DNA of 64,000 bases, from assembly GCA_040389185.1 (NCBI GenBank), contig JAZKAJ010000005.1, positions 19,887 through 83,886 on the forward strand, in the 5' to 3' direction. Origin of the DNA: Patescibacteria group bacterium (GTDB lineage Bacteria > Patescibacteriota > Minisyncoccia > Phycocordibacterales > CAIRYW01). A program made the position numbers and the translations under genes. Under the pieces are notes generated by a model that did no database searches, was not told the DNA's origin, and saw only the letters and a program-made list of their open reading frames with translations. Each line of letters opens with the position of its first letter. Position 1 is the stretch's first letter. This document shows, in pieces, positions 4,097 to 36,144 of the stretch.

Positions 4097-4474
4097 TTAA
4101 GGAGCATCCTCAATGACGGCGAATCCGTGCTGGCGAAGATGATCTACCAAATATAAGACACTCCATCCCAAGATCCGAATCTCCGAAAAATACAGACCAG
4201 GGAATGTATCATCCCGCATTTCCAGCTCTGGAGCCTCCATCAGTCCCCCGTCCTTAAACCGGTCCCAACGCTTGAGAGATTGATAGATGAGGCAGTGAAG
4301 AGCAGGTGCGGCCGCTGCTGGCTGAATATAAAGCTGAAGGATACTGCCTTTCCCTTCATAAGGGAGATACCGTGCCAACACTGGACTACCGTTTACTTGA
4401 AGTTTGTTCATAAGAGAGAGTTTTGTTTGTGCAATCCAAAAAATTATACATTTAAATCTATGACTGTCAATCAT
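4097..4474 (-). CDS. Hypothetical protein (125 aa) in a higher-GC patch.
   Basis: ORF only. GC is elevated relative to the flanks and no motif is recognised. Confidence 0.3.
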   Translation of the reverse strand: MIDSHRFKCIIFWIAQTKLSLMNKLQVNGSPVLARYLPYEGKGSILQLYIQPAAAAPALHCLIYQSLKRWDRFKDGGLMEAPELEMRDDTFPGLYFSEIRILGWSVLYLVDHLRQHGFAVIEDAP

Positions 4475-6092: not shown

Positions 6093-7802
6093 TTATCTGT
6101 CTGGTGATAATTCATAATAGCTTATAAGAAATTTCGAGAGATCAAAGAATGGTAACGCGAGTGTATCTGCCGCAAAAAGATTGTCAGTTCTTGGATTATA
6201 AGTGTAAAGAAAGACAATAAACTTCGGATCATAAGCTGGGAAATATCCAAAGAATGAGTGAAGGTATTTGTCACTGTAGTACCCTCCATTTGGACTTGGT
6301 ACCTGAGCTGTTCCTGTCTTTGCTGCGATTGTGTAGTGATCGTTCTTGCCCTTACCTTGAATGAGAGCTGTGTCTACCACCTCTACAAGCATCTTTGTAA
6401 CCGCCTTGCTTGTCTCCTCTTTGATTGCTCGAGGGCCTGTTGTAATATCGGTGTTTTTAAAGAATCCTCCTTTGTAATTCACCTTCTTGATAATATGAGG
6501 AGTTACTAGAGTACCACCATTGGCTATTACTGACAACGCACGGATAGTTGAGATTGCCGTGAGGGCAATTCCTTGGCCGAATGATGCTGTATAGTACTCA
6601 ACATCTCGCGGACTATCGAGGTTGCTTACAATATTTGCAGCTTCGTTTGGAAGATCAATCCCCGTCTTTTCTTTGAGACCAAACTTGCCCATATAGTCTG
6701 AAAATTGTTTATTACCGAGCTTGCTTACGACATACGACACACCCACATTCAAAGAGTCATTCAAGACCTGTTGCATTGATGTAATACCATGGGCTTTTTT
6801 GTCGTGATTCCAGATCGTCATTGTGTTTGCTTTGACATATCCAATGTCGTTGTAGGTTGATGTGGGAGTGATCACACCGGCATCAATCCCGGCAGCAATC
6901 GTAAGTGGTTTTATGATCGATCCCATTTCTCGCACATTATCAACAAGCGGATTACCAAATACCGATACATCCTTTTCTCCGCTAAAATCATTTGGATCAA
7001 ATGTTGGAACATCTGCCATCGCATAGATCTCACCTGTCTTTGGGTTCATAATGATACCACCAGTTTCTACCGAACTATACTGCGTCTGCACTTTAGCCAA
7101 AGTGTCTTCAAGTGTTGCCTGAACAGATGGCTCGATCGTCGCCACAATATCTCCTTCGAATGAATCATCCTTTGAAACAGTCTTTTGCCAGTTACGAAAT
7201 ATTTCTACGAAAAAGTTGGCATATACATCGTCTTTGTTTCGCTCGAGAACCTTGTCGTAGAACTTTTCGAGTCCATAACGTCCCGCATATTCATCACCTT
7301 TGAAGCCCAAAAATCCTAGTACGTTTGCTGCAGTTTTGCCTCCCGGGTAAAATCTCCACTGTTCTTTGTAGAGATAAACTCCTGGAATTTTCAAATTTTG
7401 GATCGCTATCGCTTTGTCTTCTGGAATTTTTTTTGTAATCTCTTCGTATGGGTCAGTTGATTTTGAAGCCTTTGCCAAAAAATCTTCAGAATCGATATCG
7501 GTGATACTTGAGATCTTTTCCAAAACCTGTTCCTTGTCTTTGAGAATTGTTGGATTGATTGCGAGAATATATCCAATTTTCAAAGTTCCTGCAGACACAA
7601 GTCCACCATCTTTATCTTCAAAGAAAATGGTGCCACGAGAAAATATTCCACCACTTTTTTTGACATATTGGTTGTCAGCAATCTCCACAAAGTCATCATG
7701 GTGTAAGACCTGGAGAAAATAGAGCTTTATAAAAAAAATAAATGCTACCAACACTATACATATTGATAGCACTCTTAGTCTTTTTATACTGTCTTTGTTC
7801 AT
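6093..7802 (-). CDS. ftsI: Penicillin-binding protein transpeptidase (FtsI/PBP3-like).
   Basis: 569-aa ORF with an N-terminal membrane anchor and transpeptidase motifs (SIIKP, SxN region, KTGTA). Positioned between ftsL and murF. Confidence 0.88.
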   Translation of the reverse strand: MNKDSIKRLRVLSICIVLVAFIFFIKLYFLQVLHHDDFVEIADNQYVKKSGGIFSRGTIFFEDKDGGLVSAGTLKIGYILAINPTILKDKEQVLEKISSITDIDSEDFLAKASKSTDPYEEITKKIPEDKAIAIQNLKIPGVYLYKEQWRFYPGGKTAANVLGFLGFKGDEYAGRYGLEKFYDKVLERNKDDVYANFFVEIFRNWQKTVSKDDSFEGDIVATIEPSVQATLEDTLAKVQTQYSSVETGGIIMNPKTGEIYAMADVPTFDPNDFSGEKDVSVFGNPLVDNVREMGSIIKPLTIAAGIDAGVITPTSTYNDIGYVKANTMTIWNHDKKAHGITSMQQVLNDSLNVGVSYVVSKLGNKQFSDYMGKFGLKEKTGIDLPNEAANIVSNLDSPRDVEYYTASFGQGIALTAISTIRALSVIANGGTLVTPHIIKKVNYKGGFFKNTDITTGPRAIKEETSKAVTKMLVEVVDTALIQGKGKNDHYTIAAKTGTAQVPSPNGGYYSDKYLHSFFGYFPAYDPKFIVFLYTYNPRTDNLFAADTLALPFFDLSKFLISYYELSPDR

Positions 7803-7912
7803 CCTGTTCGAAATAGGAAGCGCTTATCGCCTCCCAGTATATTATTTAATAATTATAAATCGTTACTTTCTAGCTTATCTTGTGCTGAAACTAAGCACTT
7901 CCGTAGTATATG
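7803..7912 (-). promoter_or_regulatory. Conserved 5' leader (ftsI copy): CATATACTACGGAAGTGCTTAG ... AAGCGCTTCCTATTTCGAACAGG-ATG.
   Basis: Matches the leader described under the 18471-18584 feature. It lies in the 190-nt gap between ftsL and ftsI. Confidence 0.4.
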
Positions 7913-7990
7913 TGAATGTAAACAGTTTATCATTGTTTTTGCTTTATTTTAATATGTTAGCTTCGAATAACTGTGGGATTTCGAACGGGA

Positions 7991-8305
7991 TTAAATTCTG
8001 TCTTTGCTTACGAATGCAGTCTGGCTGAGCCCTGCCTTTGCAACGATCACATTGTCTGCATCGACGAATCCGAGTGATCGAGCAAGTTCTGGATTAATTT
8101 TGGCTTTAATATTTAGGTATGAAAATTCCATTTCACTAAGCTTGCTTGTGACCTCACTAATTTCCTTTTCTCCTCTCTGTCTTTCGAGTGTGTTGTAGAC
8201 AGTGCTTCCAACAAGTCCAATATATGTAAATACAAGTACGCCAAGAATTCCGCCGAGGGCCCAGATCTGCTTTTGATATTTGAATTGTGTTGGCATCTTT
8301 GTCAT
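7991..8305 (-). CDS. ftsL: Cell division protein FtsL-like (single-pass membrane, coiled-coil).
   Basis: 104-aa ORF with one transmembrane helix plus a coiled coil, located between rsmH and ftsI. Confidence 0.55.
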   Translation of the reverse strand: MTKMPTQFKYQKQIWALGGILGVLVFTYIGLVGSTVYNTLERQRGEKEISEVTSKLSEMEFSYLNIKAKINPELARSLGFVDADNVIVAKAGLSQTAFVSKDRI

Positions 8306-8327: not shown

Positions 8328-9227
8328 TTAATTACTTGTTTTTTGAATGATTCTAAGTTTTGCACTTCGTGCTCGTGGATTTTCTTTAAGCTCTTCTTCT
8401 CCTGCAATTATTGGCTTCTTGTTTATGAGAATTGCTTTTTCTTCACTTACCAATCCCTTTGCCCAATGTTTTACTATTCTGTCTTCAAGGCTATGGAATG
8501 ATATGACTGCGATTCTTCTTCCTACCTTTACCCTTTCGAATGCTTTCTTCAGCCCTTCTTGGAGTGCCCCAAATTCATCATTGACCGCTATTCGGATTGA
8601 CTGGAATGTTTTGGTTGCTGGATGAATCTTTTTGTTTCGAGTGAATCCTGGAACTGCGTTCCAAACAATCTCTCGAAGCTGCACTGTAGTTTTAATTGGT
8701 TCTACCTCTCTCGCTTCGACTATTGCTCGTGCGATTCGTCCCGAGAATTGTTCTTCTCCAAAACCTTTGAGAATGTCTCGCAGCGTTTCTTCTGACCATT
8801 CATTGACCACTGTCTCTGCTGTAACTTCTTTTTCATCAGAATCGTAAGCCATTTGGAGCGGTTCATCCTTTTGGAATGTAAACCCTCTTCCTGACACTTC
8901 GATCTGATCAGAACTCCAGCCAAGGTCGAACATAAAGCCATCCACTTCCTTCATTTTTGCTTTATCCAAGACCTTATCTAGATTCCTAAAGTTTGATTTG
9001 AATATCTGCACTCTGTCTCCAAATTTCGCAAGTCTCACTTTAGCTTTCTTGATTGCATCACTATCCGCATCAATACCGATTACATTAGCTTTCTTATGGT
9101 GTTCCAAAATATATTCACTGTGTCCTCCACTATTTAGTGTGCAATCAACAACAGTGTCACCGCTTTGGATTTCCAAACTTTCTACCATTTCTTTTAAAAG
9201 AACACTTTTGTGAATGTAATCTGCCAT
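8328..9227 (-). CDS. rsmH: 16S rRNA (cytosine1402-N4)-methyltransferase RsmH/MraW.
   Basis: 299-aa ORF with the N-terminal MADYIHKSVLLKE and the GGHSE motif. Lies adjacent to mraZ. Confidence 0.9.
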   Translation of the reverse strand: MADYIHKSVLLKEMVESLEIQSGDTVVDCTLNSGGHSEYILEHHKKANVIGIDADSDAIKKAKVRLAKFGDRVQIFKSNFRNLDKVLDKAKMKEVDGFMFDLGWSSDQIEVSGRGFTFQKDEPLQMAYDSDEKEVTAETVVNEWSEETLRDILKGFGEEQFSGRIARAIVEAREVEPIKTTVQLREIVWNAVPGFTRNKKIHPATKTFQSIRIAVNDEFGALQEGLKKAFERVKVGRRIAVISFHSLEDRIVKHWAKGLVSEEKAILINKKPIIAGEEELKENPRARSAKLRIIQKTSN

Positions 9228-9231
9228 AAAG

Positions 9232-9666
9232 TTAAAACGCCCCTGTCTGACTTAACTTTTCAGCCAATACATCAGCTTCTACAACCACCTTCTCTTTGTA
9301 CTCTGCCCACTTCTTGTCATTCCACATTTCAATTCTCTTGTGAACTCCAATGAATACCCCCTTGTCTTTGATCTTTGCGAATTCTCGAAGATACTCTGGG
9401 ATAAGAACTCGTCCAAGTGAATCTACCTCAAGTTCTACCGCTCCACCAAACATAAATCTGTTGAAGCCTCGAGTATCTGCTCGCAAAGAATCCATCTTCC
9501 CCATCTCGTCTGAAATCTTTTCCCATTCAGTTGTTGGATATAGGAAAAGACATCCTTCGAGACCGTATGTTGCGATAAGCTTCTTACCCACTTCTTTACG
9601 GAATTTTGAAGGAAGAGAAATTCTGTTCTTGTCGTCTATCGTGTGTGTGTATTCGCCTATTAGCAT
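9232..9666 (-). CDS. mraZ: Transcriptional regulator MraZ.
   Basis: 144-aa ORF with duplicated DUF321 halves (MLIGEYTHTIDDKNRISLP... and ...GVHKRIEMWNDKKW). First gene of the dcw cluster. Confidence 0.9.
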   Translation of the reverse strand: MLIGEYTHTIDDKNRISLPSKFRKEVGKKLIATYGLEGCLFLYPTTEWEKISDEMGKMDSLRADTRGFNRFMFGGAVELEVDSLGRVLIPEYLREFAKIKDKGVFIGVHKRIEMWNDKKWAEYKEKVVVEADVLAEKLSQTGAF

Positions 9667-17213: not shown

Positions 17214-18470
17214 TTATTTTAAGATATTTAATATTTCCTCCTTGCTTCTACCTGTCGTTTCGCTCGTAATTCTGTTTGAATATTCGAGCTGACCTTTTTC
17301 TTCTGTTTTCTTACTTATTACAATCCGATGTGGAATACCGATAAGGTCTGCATCTGCAAACTTTTCTCCCGCTCGAGCATCTCTATCGTCAAACAAGACT
17401 TCAATACCTTTTGAAATTAATTCTTCATAAAGGTCTATTGCTTTTTGCTTTAACATTTCATCTCCTTGAGAAAGTTCTACGAGATGCACCTTAAATGGTG
17501 ATACAGATTCCGGCCAGATCATTCCTTTTTCAGTTGCAAGGACCTCAACAATTGTTCCCATAAGGCGACCGATTCCGATTCCATAGCTTCCCATAAATAC
17601 TGGTTTTGATTCTCCATTCTCGTCAACATATGTGAGACCGAGTGGTTCAGAAAAACGAGTTCCAAGTGTAAAGATATTTCCGACTTCCACAGTTTTCTTT
17701 TCAATCACATTGTCACCCACTTTCAAATCTTTTTTAACCTCATCTGTATACACCTCTTTGTTTATTGCCTCCTTCTTTTCACCACTATCAATATTGTGAT
17801 AAATAACGTCTTCACCAGCATCGGTTTCAGTCTGAAATTCGTGCGAAAACTTGGCAAATACACCCCCAGAAGCAAATGTATAATACGTTTTTTCTCCAAG
17901 ACCCACTTTATTAAATATATTCCAGTATGCTTCTTTTACTTTTTCATAAAACTTCAAATGTTGTTCTTCGTTTCTAGAAAAAGAATAAAGATCTTTCATT
18001 AAAAACTCTCTCCCACGCAAGATTCCAGACTTTGCCCGTGTTTCATTTCTAAATTTTGTTTGAAATTGGTATGCAGACCTTGGGAGATCTTTGTACGATC
18101 GAATGTGGTCTTTCATTATTTCCGTGATTGGTTCTTCATGCGTGAAGCCGAGACCAAGCTCTGTATCATTTTTGAGTTTTGTTTTAAACCAGTTGTCCAC
18201 TACAGCATCATCCCATCGATTAGTTTTTTCCCAAAGTTCTTTTGACTGGAGAGATGCGAGAGAGATTTCCTGACCCCCAATCATATTCATTTCATATCGG
18301 ACAACTTGCTCTATTTTTTTCATTACACGAAGTCCCAATGGTAATACAGAATAAACTCCGGCCATATCTTTATGGACGAATCCGGCACGAATAAGGAGTT
18401 GAGCGTTCTTTGCAACCTCGTCTTTTGGCGCTTCAAAACGCGTTTTGGTGAAAAGATGTGTTTGTTTCAT
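17214..18470 (-). CDS. proS: Prolyl-tRNA synthetase (short, about 418 aa).
   Basis: Class II aaRS motifs and a C-terminal anticodon-binding domain. The ORF track starts at GTG 18500, but the ATG at 18468-18470 (MKQTHLFTKTRF) sits behind the conserved leader and is the more likely start. Confidence 0.88.
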   Translation of the reverse strand: MKQTHLFTKTRFEAPKDEVAKNAQLLIRAGFVHKDMAGVYSVLPLGLRVMKKIEQVVRYEMNMIGGQEISLASLQSKELWEKTNRWDDAVVDNWFKTKLKNDTELGLGFTHEEPITEIMKDHIRSYKDLPRSAYQFQTKFRNETRAKSGILRGREFLMKDLYSFSRNEEQHLKFYEKVKEAYWNIFNKVGLGEKTYYTFASGGVFAKFSHEFQTETDAGEDVIYHNIDSGEKKEAINKEVYTDEVKKDLKVGDNVIEKKTVEVGNIFTLGTRFSEPLGLTYVDENGESKPVFMGSYGIGIGRLMGTIVEVLATEKGMIWPESVSPFKVHLVELSQGDEMLKQKAIDLYEELISKGIEVLFDDRDARAGEKFADADLIGIPHRIVISKKTEEKGQLEYSNRITSETTGRSKEEILNILK

Positions 18471-18584
18471 CCCGTTCGAGATAGGAGGCGCTTTTGACAC
18501 GCTTGATATCAGTATTAATTAGTAAAATCGTAATTGCGTATATAAATATTATATTTTCTTTCCTAAGCGCTTCCGTAGTTTATG
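18471..18584 (-). promoter_or_regulatory. Conserved 5' leader (proS copy): upstream box CATAAACTACGGAAGCGCTTAGG and start-proximal box AAGCGCCTCCTATCTCGAACGGG-ATG.
   Basis: Near-identical boxes with the same ~110-nt spacing occur upstream of ftsI at 7803-7912. The two boxes are mutually complementary (GGAAGCGCTT / AAGCGCYTCC). Confidence 0.4.
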
Positions 18585-18882
18585 TATATACAACATGAAT
18601 CATTCCGCGTTTCGAGATAATCACCTTAAGTATGATTACCTAACTAAGCAATCTCGAACGGGATTCATTCGAGTATTCTACCATATTATTAAAATATTTT
18701 TTAGCGACGTAAAACGAGCAAAGAGAAAGTGTACCCACTTCCTCTTTCGAGTCGAGGAGCTAATATGGATCCTTATCTCGATTAAAGTCAATCAGGTATG
18801 AAGGATAACTAGAGCCGATTCCGCGAGAATATCTAAAGCAAGCTCAAGATCCTCTTTTCTTTCTTTACAAATCCTATATTTT

Positions 18883-35431: not shown

Positions 35432-35775
35432 GCTCCCCCGGTAGGGATCGAACCTACGACCAATCGATTACATTTATCCTAAAATTACTTAAAGGGATGG
35501 ACTATATCATATCCGTATTCTAAATTTCTTTAGAGTTTAGGACCGAGGCGCTTCGTTCCAAATATTATTTAGAACTACTCCGTTAAGGATAGTCTCTGAA
35601 CCTTCTCCGATTTACACCAGAGCTTGGCTGCTGATTGCCCTTTGTATTGCTACAAATAAGGTTTCCAGCAATTCACCTCGTTTTTCAAACTATCATTTCG
35701 ATAGAAAGCTGCAAACAGTATCATTTTTAATGATGACGCTGACAGTCGATTGCTCTACCGCTGAGCTACAGGGGA
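35432..35775 (-). tRNA. Intron-containing tRNA. Exons are 35742-35775 (5') and 35432-35469 (3'). The anticodon is most consistent with GUU (Asn).
   Basis: The exons fold as acceptor TCCCCTG/CGGGGGA, D-arm GCTC-AGCGGTA-GAGC, anticodon stem ATCGA/TCGAT, variable loop TGGTC, T-arm GTAGG-TTCGATC-CCTAC and discriminator G. The loop is CUGU|UAA when spliced at the U.G pair. Confidence 0.75.
35470..35741 (-). ncRNA. Group I self-splicing intron (272 nt) in the tRNA anticodon loop.
   Basis: Canonical core elements are present: P AAUUGCUGGAAAC, Q GCAAUCAGCAGCC, R GGUUCAGAGACUAUCC and S GAUAUGAUAUAGUCCAUCC. The 5' exon ends in U, with a GCAG internal guide that can form P1, and the intron ends in G. 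Confidence 0.8.
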
Positions 35776-36144
35776 ATATTACTCTATCTTTTTGATCATT
35801 ATTTTCATACTGATCAAAATAAATCTGGCAAATAAATTGTCGATTAACAGTCTCGTCACAGATAATTTTCCGCTGAAAATTTCTGCGACCCCACCTCACG
35901 CCATCGCGTTCCGGTCTTGCGGTTGGGTCCCTATCCCAACCTCACTCCACCGCTCTTCTACAGGGGAATACTATGTTTTATCAAACATATCTGATTACTA
36001 ATTATAATAACCAGAATTTGTCTTATAACAACAATTTTTGCTCTACCGCTCCGCTACAGGGGAATACTCGGAACATAGTATCAAAAAAGTAGCTTTTTGC
36101 AAAGGATTAGATAGAACCATATTGCCCTAAGAAAGAAGCCGGGG

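Follow-up and report, generated by a model that had tools for sequence, protein, structure and literature searches.

Correia/NEMIS repeats of Neisseria and ERIC/IRU repeats of enterobacteria are co-transcribed MITEs (miniature inverted-repeat transposable elements) of ~100-200 bp, whose terminal inverted repeats (TIRs) form a hairpin in the transcript and which may carry promoters or RNase III sites. At the RNA level, the MS2 coat-replicase junction and many operon junctions couple translation by unmasking a sequestered start codon, and in cauliflower mosaic virus (CaMV) a short open reading frame (sORF) followed by a hairpin directs ribosome shunt. Here we describe two related leaders, one upstream of ftsI and one upstream of proS, in a 64-kb stretch of contig JAZKAJ010000005.1 from a Patescibacteria group bacterium (the window). 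A sequence-only reading of this DNA had proposed that they are a shared regulatory RNA or transcription-factor site coordinating the cell-wall and elongasome operons. Our analysis indicates that both leaders probably belong to a family of small palindromic insertions, MITE-like and non-autonomous, that duplicate the start codon at their target, and are not parts of a cell-wall regulon. The window carries two diverged subfamilies of this family; the copies and all the genes concerned are on the minus strand.

Anatomy of the ftsI and proS copies

The two boxes from which the regulon had been proposed are present at both sites, far beyond chance. Box B, CATA(T/A)ACTACGGAAG(T/C)GCTTAG, has a 17-nt core that matches twice in the window against 0.12 matches expected, and box C, AAGCGC(T/C)TCCTAT(T/C)TCGAAC(A/G)GG, directly adjoins the ATGs at 7802 and 18470. 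Their spacing, described as identical, differs between the copies, the leaders being 110 and 114 nt long with B-to-C gaps of 65 and 69 nt. The sequence between them is not unrelated either, as the units are 56% identical overall and contain alignable islands such as ACGATTT and TAATTAATA. The complementarity of the boxes was borne out: GGAAGYGCUU pairs with AAGCGCYUCC, and the helix is present in the minimum-free-energy (MFE) folds of both leaders. A U-to-C difference had been said to keep pairing as G.U; of the two differences between the boxes, one does preserve pairing (U.G in the ftsI copy), but the other gives an A.C mismatch in the proS copy.

In addition to these two, a third conserved box, which had been overlooked, is located ~180 nt 5' of each ATG (box A, AATCCCGTTCGARAT; 7978-7992 and 18651-18665). 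Box A and the ATG-proximal half of box C (ATYTCGAACRGGAT) are reverse complements of each other, and the composite inverted-repeat pattern matches these two loci only in the window, with 0.00 matches expected. Each unit is ~190 nt long and is bounded by 14-nt TIRs (ATCCCGTTCGARAT ... ATYTCGAACGGGAT), inside which boxes B and C5' make a second complementary pair, each containing most of the 12-nt palindrome GGAAGCGCTTCC (Table 1). In the ftsI copy, the first A of the 5' arm is the last base of the stop codon TAA (7993-7991) of the ftsL-like open reading frame (ORF), and the 3' arm ends with two bases, A and T, that belong to the start codon of ftsI. Over the whole family, copies measure 105-195 nt and have no coding capacity, and 97% of the cells of the 14-nt arms are paired across 8 copies.

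The absence of a Shine-Dalgarno (SD) sequence at ftsI and proS, reported earlier, is real but not special to them. Only 2 of the 62 window ORFs of at least 120 amino acids (aa) have an SD-like motif upstream; the missing SD is therefore a property of the genome and not of these genes. Many window genes show TGnTAnnnT, an extended -10 sequence, 5-8 nt 5' of the ATG, which is a leaderless arrangement and suggests that leaderless mRNAs are widespread in this Patescibacterium. The proposal that proS starts at the ATG at 18470, and not at the GTG at 18500 used by the ORF track, was confirmed: alignments with ProS profiles and with homologues begin at residue 1, and the database contains an annotated 418-aa protein of identical sequence.

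Copies in relatives, empty sites and start-codon duplications

Eight long copies were found: the two in the window, two in metagenome-assembled genomes (MAGs) of GTDB (L013 and L027; L-numbers denote loci or contigs from relatives) and four on contigs of one metagenome (L028-L031). L013 and L027 were the two real hits among 21 matches in a genome-collection scan, the other 19 being chance matches in GC-rich coding DNA. A scan of viral contigs gave 0 matches, and blastn against plasmids and phages gave no match to the element. A short relative of 106 nt precedes proS in L001; it has the same arms and no B and C5' boxes (type 3). Two further short relatives stand in tandem at L039, the first of them with a 6-nt insertion in its 3' arm.

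The long copies fall into two subfamilies. Type 1 comprises the ftsI copy of the window and the copies of L013, L027, L028, L029 and L030, with mutual identities of 71-84%, and type 2 comprises the window's proS copy and a copy 87% identical to it in L031, where the downstream gene is unrelated. Identity between the types is just 52-56%, so that copies in other genomes resemble either window copy more closely than the two window copies resemble each other. A single compensatory arm change, A-U to G-C, separates type 1 from type 2, and the type-3 arms are altered in concert, GTTAGAAAA pairing with TTTTCTAAC.

The family is dispersed to non-homologous loci: the 64-kb window has two, one metagenome has copies on four contigs, and assembly GCA_964577785.1 has at least two (L013 and L039). 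The genes downstream are functionally heterogeneous: ftsI, proS, dinB, lexA, an ABC-2 permease, an AI-2E transporter, engB, a secreted protein and priA. FtsI and ProS mark the window as part of a Paceibacteria-like Patescibacteria MAG, and proteins identical to them are encoded on an 88-kb NCBI contig. The L013 and L027 MAGs closely match the Paceibacteria-like lineage of the window in FtsI, ProS and gene order (proS-mreBCD-mrdA ... mraZ-rsmH-ftsL-ftsI).

Partial copies were also seen. At L027 2047-2112 (-), an AI-2E transporter gene is preceded by the 3' half only of a type-3 element, a homologue of the corresponding half of the L001 copy, with GGGTATAAT ~50 nt 5' of the ATG and the end ...TTTTCTAAACGGG directly at the ATG; the orthologous gene in L028 has a full type-1 copy. 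At L030 3860-3905 (-), a 32-nt mini-remnant (TCCTGTTCGAAAG...TTTCTGAGGGAT) lies directly 5' of the full type-1 copy at lexA, where the 5' flank repeats ~12 nt of the lexA 5' coding sequence (AAAGACAAAATA). A tight hairpin, AAAGCGCTTCCG-loop-CGGAAGCGCTTT, with the palindrome of boxes B and C5', is located between lexA and dinB of the same contig (2679-2700).

The orthologous sites of close relatives are mostly empty. The element is missing at ftsI in all five close-relative loci (L032-L036; FtsI 78-83% aa identity), where the ftsL-ftsI gap is 14-22 nt and, in L032 and L034, contains an extended -10 (TGnTAnAAT) 7 nt before the ATG. At proS it is missing in five of six relatives (L002, with 81% aa identity, L004, L005, L039 and L040), and the element-free sites have a TGnTAnAAT box 6-7 nt from the ATG; the sixth relative, L001 (83%), has the short type-3 copy. 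L013, L036 and L039 share one assembly, and L035 shares a sample with L028-L031; the element is thus missing at ftsI or proS even in genomes or samples where the family occurs. Absence of the boxes from orthologous genes in relatives had been named in advance as the observation that would count against co-regulation of the two operons, and it was found for both ftsI and proS, while the same unit precedes unrelated genes elsewhere. By this criterion, the cell-wall regulon is refuted. An internal promoter in the dcw cluster, also part of the sequence-only reading, is plausible directly before ftsI in the relatives, given their TGnTAnAAT box, but the spacer that holds it is gone in the window. 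Relatives with 78-83% FtsI identity (the L033/L040 and L036/L039 contigs) are only 67-68% identical to the window in ProS, and the closest ProS sequences (81-83%) are on other contigs; proS may have been exchanged, or divergence may be uneven.

Perfect direct repeats of 5-6 bp flank six of the ten copies; they start with the host ATG and track the second codon of the host gene. The repeats are ATGAA/ATGAA at the proS copy of the window and at L027, L029 and L031, ATGGA/ATGGA at the outer flanks of L030, and ATGAGA/ATGAGA on both sides of the tandem pair at L039. Decay has turned the ATG of the middle repeat into ATT in both tandem arrays (L030 and L039). All the copies seen end precisely at gene start codons, with search patterns that demanded neither an ORF nor the G of the ATG, and in 232 kb of related DNA AACGGGATG is confined to element-abutted true gene starts. 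Orientation relative to the gene is the same at all ten loci, which has a probability of ~0.002 if orientation is random. At leaderless genes (proS, L029, L031 and L039) the promoter now lies 6 nt 5' of the upstream repeat copy, and at proS this upstream ATGAA opens a 10-codon upstream ORF (uORF; 18636-18668, MNPVRDCLVR*). At operon junctions (ftsI, L027 and L013) the stop codon of the upstream gene overlaps or abuts the 5' arm. The 5' counterpart of the repeat at ftsI (7991-7995) is degenerate (TTTAA), and L032 natively begins ftsI with ATGAAC.

Small size, TIRs, target duplication, dispersal and the coexistence of filled and empty sites are all as in a MITE; a cognate transposase is the one hallmark that was not found in the limited sample of related DNA. 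Two candidate routes of mobilisation were rejected. An ATGAA borne by the element, as in an IS200/605-like target with a matching right end, is incompatible with the ATGGA outer flanks of L030 and the ATGAGA flanks of L039. A RAYT/Y1 transposase was dismissed because the sole such gene seen (L034/L035) has unrelated flanking palindromes. This gene, a Y1 (IS200-like/RAYT-like) transposase gene at 6436-7095 of L034/L035, lies between an Asp/Asn-tRNA ligase gene and mraZ; the palindrome CAACTCCGCTAGGTCGGACCTAGCGGAGTTG, unrelated to boxes A, B and C, flanks it on both sides, and it has no homologue in the window.

Several observations weigh against a mobile element of the ordinary kind. Four of the ten copies have no clean direct repeat: TTTAA/ATGAA at ftsI and TTGAA/ATGAA at L028 are off by 1-2 bases, and L013 and L001 are irregular. 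The ftsI locus of the window lacks the 18-nt spacer found in L032 and is therefore not a simple insertion. A symmetric-TIR transposon is expected to insert in either orientation and also at intergenic ATGRR sites that are not gene starts, so that one orientation at true starts in all ten cases implies special targeting or strong selection, and a host function under selection is conceivable. Conservation is much higher in the boxes than in the interior of the element. No autonomous partner, in the form of a second arm pair flanking an ORF or transposase, was found in ~275 kb of related DNA, which is a limited sample, and the copies were counted on genome fragments.

Table 1. Positions of the element copies, their parts and the neighbouring genes (window coordinates unless a locus of a relative is named).
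Feature	Position	Strand	Remark
ftsI copy, type 1, ~188 nt (TCCCG...CAGG)	7803-7991	-	between ftsL-like stop and ftsI ATG; nhmmer E = 5e-55
ftsI copy, 5' arm (box A) ATCCCGTTCGAAAT	7978-7991	-	pairs with 7801-7814 in the MFE fold
ftsI copy, box B CATATACTACGGAAGTGCTTAG	7891-7912	-	most of palindrome GGAAGCGCTTCC
ftsI copy, box C5' AAGCGCTTCC	7816-7825	-	pairs with box B, one U.G
ftsI copy, 3' arm (box C3') ATTTCGAACAGGAT	7801-7814	-	one C.A mismatch to the 5' arm
ATGAA, ftsI start codon and 2 bases	7798-7802	-	3' copy of flanking repeat
proS copy, type 2, ~193 nt	18471-18664	-	between leaderless-type proS promoter and proS ATG
proS copy, 5' arm (box A) ATCCCGTTCGAGAT	18651-18664	-	
proS copy, box B CATAAACTACGGAAGCGCTTAG	18563-18584	-	
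proS copy, box C5' AAGCGCCTCC	18484-18493	-	one A.C mismatch to box B
proS copy, 3' arm (box C3') ATCTCGAACGGGAT	18469-18482	-	perfect complement of the 5' arm; ends in A,T of the proS start codon
Extended -10 promoter TGGTAGAAT	18675-18683	-	6 nt 5' of upstream ATGAA, leaderless-gene spacing
Upstream ATGAA	18664-18668	-	5' copy of direct repeat, displaced original proS start position
ATGAA, true proS start (ATG 18470-18468)	18466-18470	-	3' copy of direct repeat
GTG chosen by the ORF track	18498-18500	-	within inserted element; not the proS start
L013 copy			between lexA-like stop and dinB-like ATG
L027 copy			between ABC ATPase stop and ABC-2 permease ATG
L028 copy			5' of AI-2E transporter gene
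L029 copy			5' of engB
L030 copy			5' of lexA
L031 copy			5' of secreted-protein gene
L039 tandem pair, short relatives of ~105-110 nt	4220-4450	-	between TGCTATAAT promoter and leaderless priA-like ATG; arms TCCCGTTAGAAAA / TTTTCTAACGGGA
mraZ	9232-9666	-	
rsmH	8328-9227	-	
ftsL-like ORF, 104 aa	7991-8305	-	
ftsI	6093-7802	-	murF also in cluster
proS	17214-18470 (ATG at 18470)	-	with mreB, mreC and mrdA

Elsewhere in the window, a group I intron (Rfam RF00028, 69.5 bits, 35478-35738) interrupts a tRNA gene in the anticodon-loop region at 35432-35830 (-). The exons lie roughly at 35739-35830 and 35432-35470 with a visible T-arm, GTAGGTTCGATCCCTAC, and ARAGORN does not call this tRNA.

Predicted structure, promoters and alternative explanations

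In the MFE folds of all ten copies, arm pairs with arm, and the A and U of the AUG are paired with the first two arm bases; pairing of B with C5' is predicted in nine of the ten. With dinucleotide-preserving shuffles, the fold z-scores of the window copies are -3.6 and -2.8, within a range of -2.8 to -4.5 over the three leaders tested. Covariation is minimal and insufficient to establish a selected RNA: in an alignment of 8 sequences only, 95% of the cells are paired, 16 of 25 pairs are invariant, a single pair is compensatory, several are broken by C.A or A.C, and shuffles are not exceeded. Searches with Rfam 15, comprising a gathering-threshold scan of the window and scans of both loci at E<=10, returned noise only, with no T-box, riboswitch or ribozyme. 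Of the features that would mark a leader RNA or riboswitch, namely conservation at orthologues, coherent downstream genes and a known RNA family, none was found.

A promoter scan of box B in the ftsI copy called TATACT as a -10, with ATGATA 17 nt 5' of it. This ATGA(T/C)A-17 nt-TATACT arrangement is retained at box B in 5/6 type-1 copies, and in type-3 copies a TATAAT or GATAAT box precedes the ATG by 31-50 nt. An outward promoter inside the element is therefore possible; the type-1 spacing is not conserved in type 2. A leaderless promoter at the 3' end of the element was judged unlikely, as TATTTC/TATCTC lies 7 nt before the ATG without the -7 T. Within the 5' coding region of ftsI, a promoter-like TTGATA-16 nt-TATACT at 7763-7790 (+) points antisense into the element, and a terminator-like hairpin on the sense strand lies just within the gene at 7740-7774 (-); in this AT-rich DNA, both may be chance.

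Other identities for the unit were considered and set aside. A conserved small protein across box B (M-I-N-x-L-H-x-H-I-L-R-K-R-L...) was rejected, although the frame is open in 6/6 type-1 copies: third codon positions are not more variable, the ratio of synonymous to non-synonymous changes is equal in all three frames, and the type-2 copy of L031 has no start. A profile search of 5.8 billion proteins found no relatives of it. An integron attC site, a tRNA-like structure and an intrinsic terminator were likewise rejected for lack of a fitting sequence, of any ARAGORN hit at these sites and of a predicted terminator within the element.

A dedicated cis-regulatory leader, that is, a riboswitch-like RNA or 5' clamp co-regulating the dcw (ftsI) and proS-mreBCD-mrdA units, would account for the same boxes standing before two morphogenesis-related units of one genome and for a stable predicted structure that sequesters the AUG. 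It is nevertheless the least probable account, close to being dismissed altogether, since the boxes are missing at both orthologous sites of the closest relatives and precede DNA-repair, transporter, GTPase and replication genes elsewhere, the two window copies come from different subfamilies, no Rfam family matches, and the lack of SD is genome-wide. We also regard as very improbable a scheme of paired operators, in which AAGCGCTT (in B and C5') and TTCGAA (in the arms) would bind a dimeric protein that loops ~75-180 bp over the start codon. The 8-bp palindrome AAGCGCTT does occur in both B and C5', and the L030 hairpin between lexA and dinB has the same 12-mer, but no regulator emerged as a candidate, the sites are always found together in one unit flanked by duplications, the downstream genes are of mixed function, and any binding protein is as likely to be a transposase or nucleoid protein as a regulator.

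An expression module that is portable, kept for its RNA or its internal promoter (a coupling hairpin, an outward promoter or a processing site regenerating a near-leaderless mRNA) and spread by recombination, deserves more weight than these two, even though we consider it unlikely. It would fit the sense orientation and exact abutment to the ATG at all ten loci, boxes A, B and C that are invariant across subfamilies only ~55% identical overall, the need of the essential ftsI and proS genes to be expressed through the element, and the promoter-like sequences of the type-1 and type-3 copies. The A-U to G-C change between types 1 and 2 and the concerted changes in type 3 can be read in its favour, but concerted arm changes are equally expected of TIRs recognised by a transposase. 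Covariation, with one compensatory pair in 25, C.A or A.C breaks and a shuffle control that is not exceeded, does not favour it, nor does the lack of conservation of the type-1 promoter-like spacing in type 2. The downstream genes share no function, and DNA insertion is indicated by direct repeats derived from the host and by tandem re-insertion.

For the MITE-like insertion family, we propose the following course of events. Insertion would duplicate the ATG and the next 2-3 bases of the host gene. One repeat copy would stay at the old position, close to the promoter at a leaderless gene such as proS or overlapping the upstream stop codon at an operon junction such as ftsL-ftsI, and the other would serve as the working start codon. 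The element would be co-transcribed, and its arms are predicted to fold into a long hairpin in which the A and U of the AUG are paired and which could bring the old junction, be it a stop codon or a 5'-terminal AUG, beside the working AUG. A ribosome ending at the upstream stop, or starting at the 5'-terminal AUG as at the proS uORF, could then melt the 5' arm and free the AUG, an unmasking that would preserve translational coupling. The -10 boxes of the short type-3 copies could additionally supply an outward promoter. Going further, the family might be a start-codon-homing element suited to leaderless, SD-less mRNAs, which recognises the ATG/+1 (perhaps in the melted open complex of the promoter), duplicates the start codon and loops itself out as a hairpin, with unmasking or cleavage at the hairpin base restoring coupled or near-leaderless translation. 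We offer this self-neutralising insertion tentatively, as a possibility that we doubt more than we favour.

Significance and comparison with known systems

These results illustrate that upstream boxes shared within one small genome can be mobile DNA instead of a regulon. The finding corrects the start annotation of proS and explains the long structured leaders of two essential genes in a genome whose gene starts otherwise appear to be leaderless or unstructured. Occurrence solely at start codons, a single orientation, recurrent hits at the same sites and a place before essential genes are an unusual combination for a repeat family, here in streamlined genomes that are expected to purge junk. 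Should the hairpin indeed maintain coupling or restore leaderless mRNAs, it would represent a novel means by which an insertion is tolerated, and a self-neutralising insertion, if that idea is correct, would be able to sit even before the essential ftsI and proS genes. The element offers a tractable handle on two poorly understood matters in Patescibacteria, translation initiation without SD sequences and the persistence of mobile DNA in genomes of ~1 Mb.

Like Correia and ERIC repeats, the element is small and non-coding, has TIRs that give a long hairpin, is flanked by a short target duplication, and is dispersed, polymorphic in presence and absence, and located within transcription units. 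In contrast to Correia repeats, which duplicate TA, it duplicates 5-6 bp beginning at the ATG of the host gene, and its sequence resembles neither family. It also departs from both families in that every copy abuts a start codon in one orientation, that the same start codon has been hit repeatedly or in tandem, that no cognate transposase is known, and that its host is an SD-poor Patescibacterium with apparently leaderless genes. With REP/REPIN-RAYT systems and the PATEs of IS200/IS605 it shares the character of a short, palindromic, hairpin-forming, non-autonomous repeat, and PATEs insert in a fixed orientation beside a short specific sequence. However, REPs are 20-40 nt long with a GTAG head and usually lie 3' of genes, and the RAYT-like gene of L034 is flanked by unrelated palindromes. 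IS200/IS605 elements have neither TIRs nor a target duplication, and their PATEs have a fixed tetra- or pentanucleotide at the left flank alone, whereas the ends of the present element are mutually complementary and its flanking repeat occurs on both sides and varies with the host codon (ATGAA, ATGGA, ATGAGA).

Similarity to the coupling and shunt systems lies in a stop codon or short uORF directly 5' of a stable helix that would hold the next AUG in its 3' strand, a likeness that comes from predicted structure alone and for which we do not claim membership. Putative mobile promoters resemble the element in the reuse of a ~100-200-nt upstream block before unrelated genes and in the good gene-facing -10 boxes of some copies, but the element has clear inverted-repeat ends and a start-codon duplication, and its promoter activity is predicted only. 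A literature search for MITEs in Patescibacteria or for start-codon-targeting MITEs found nothing relevant. The element is set apart from known MITEs, among which we found no such family described, by an ATG-anchored 5-6-bp duplication, by its strict confinement to start codons in one orientation and by recurrent hits at the same starts.

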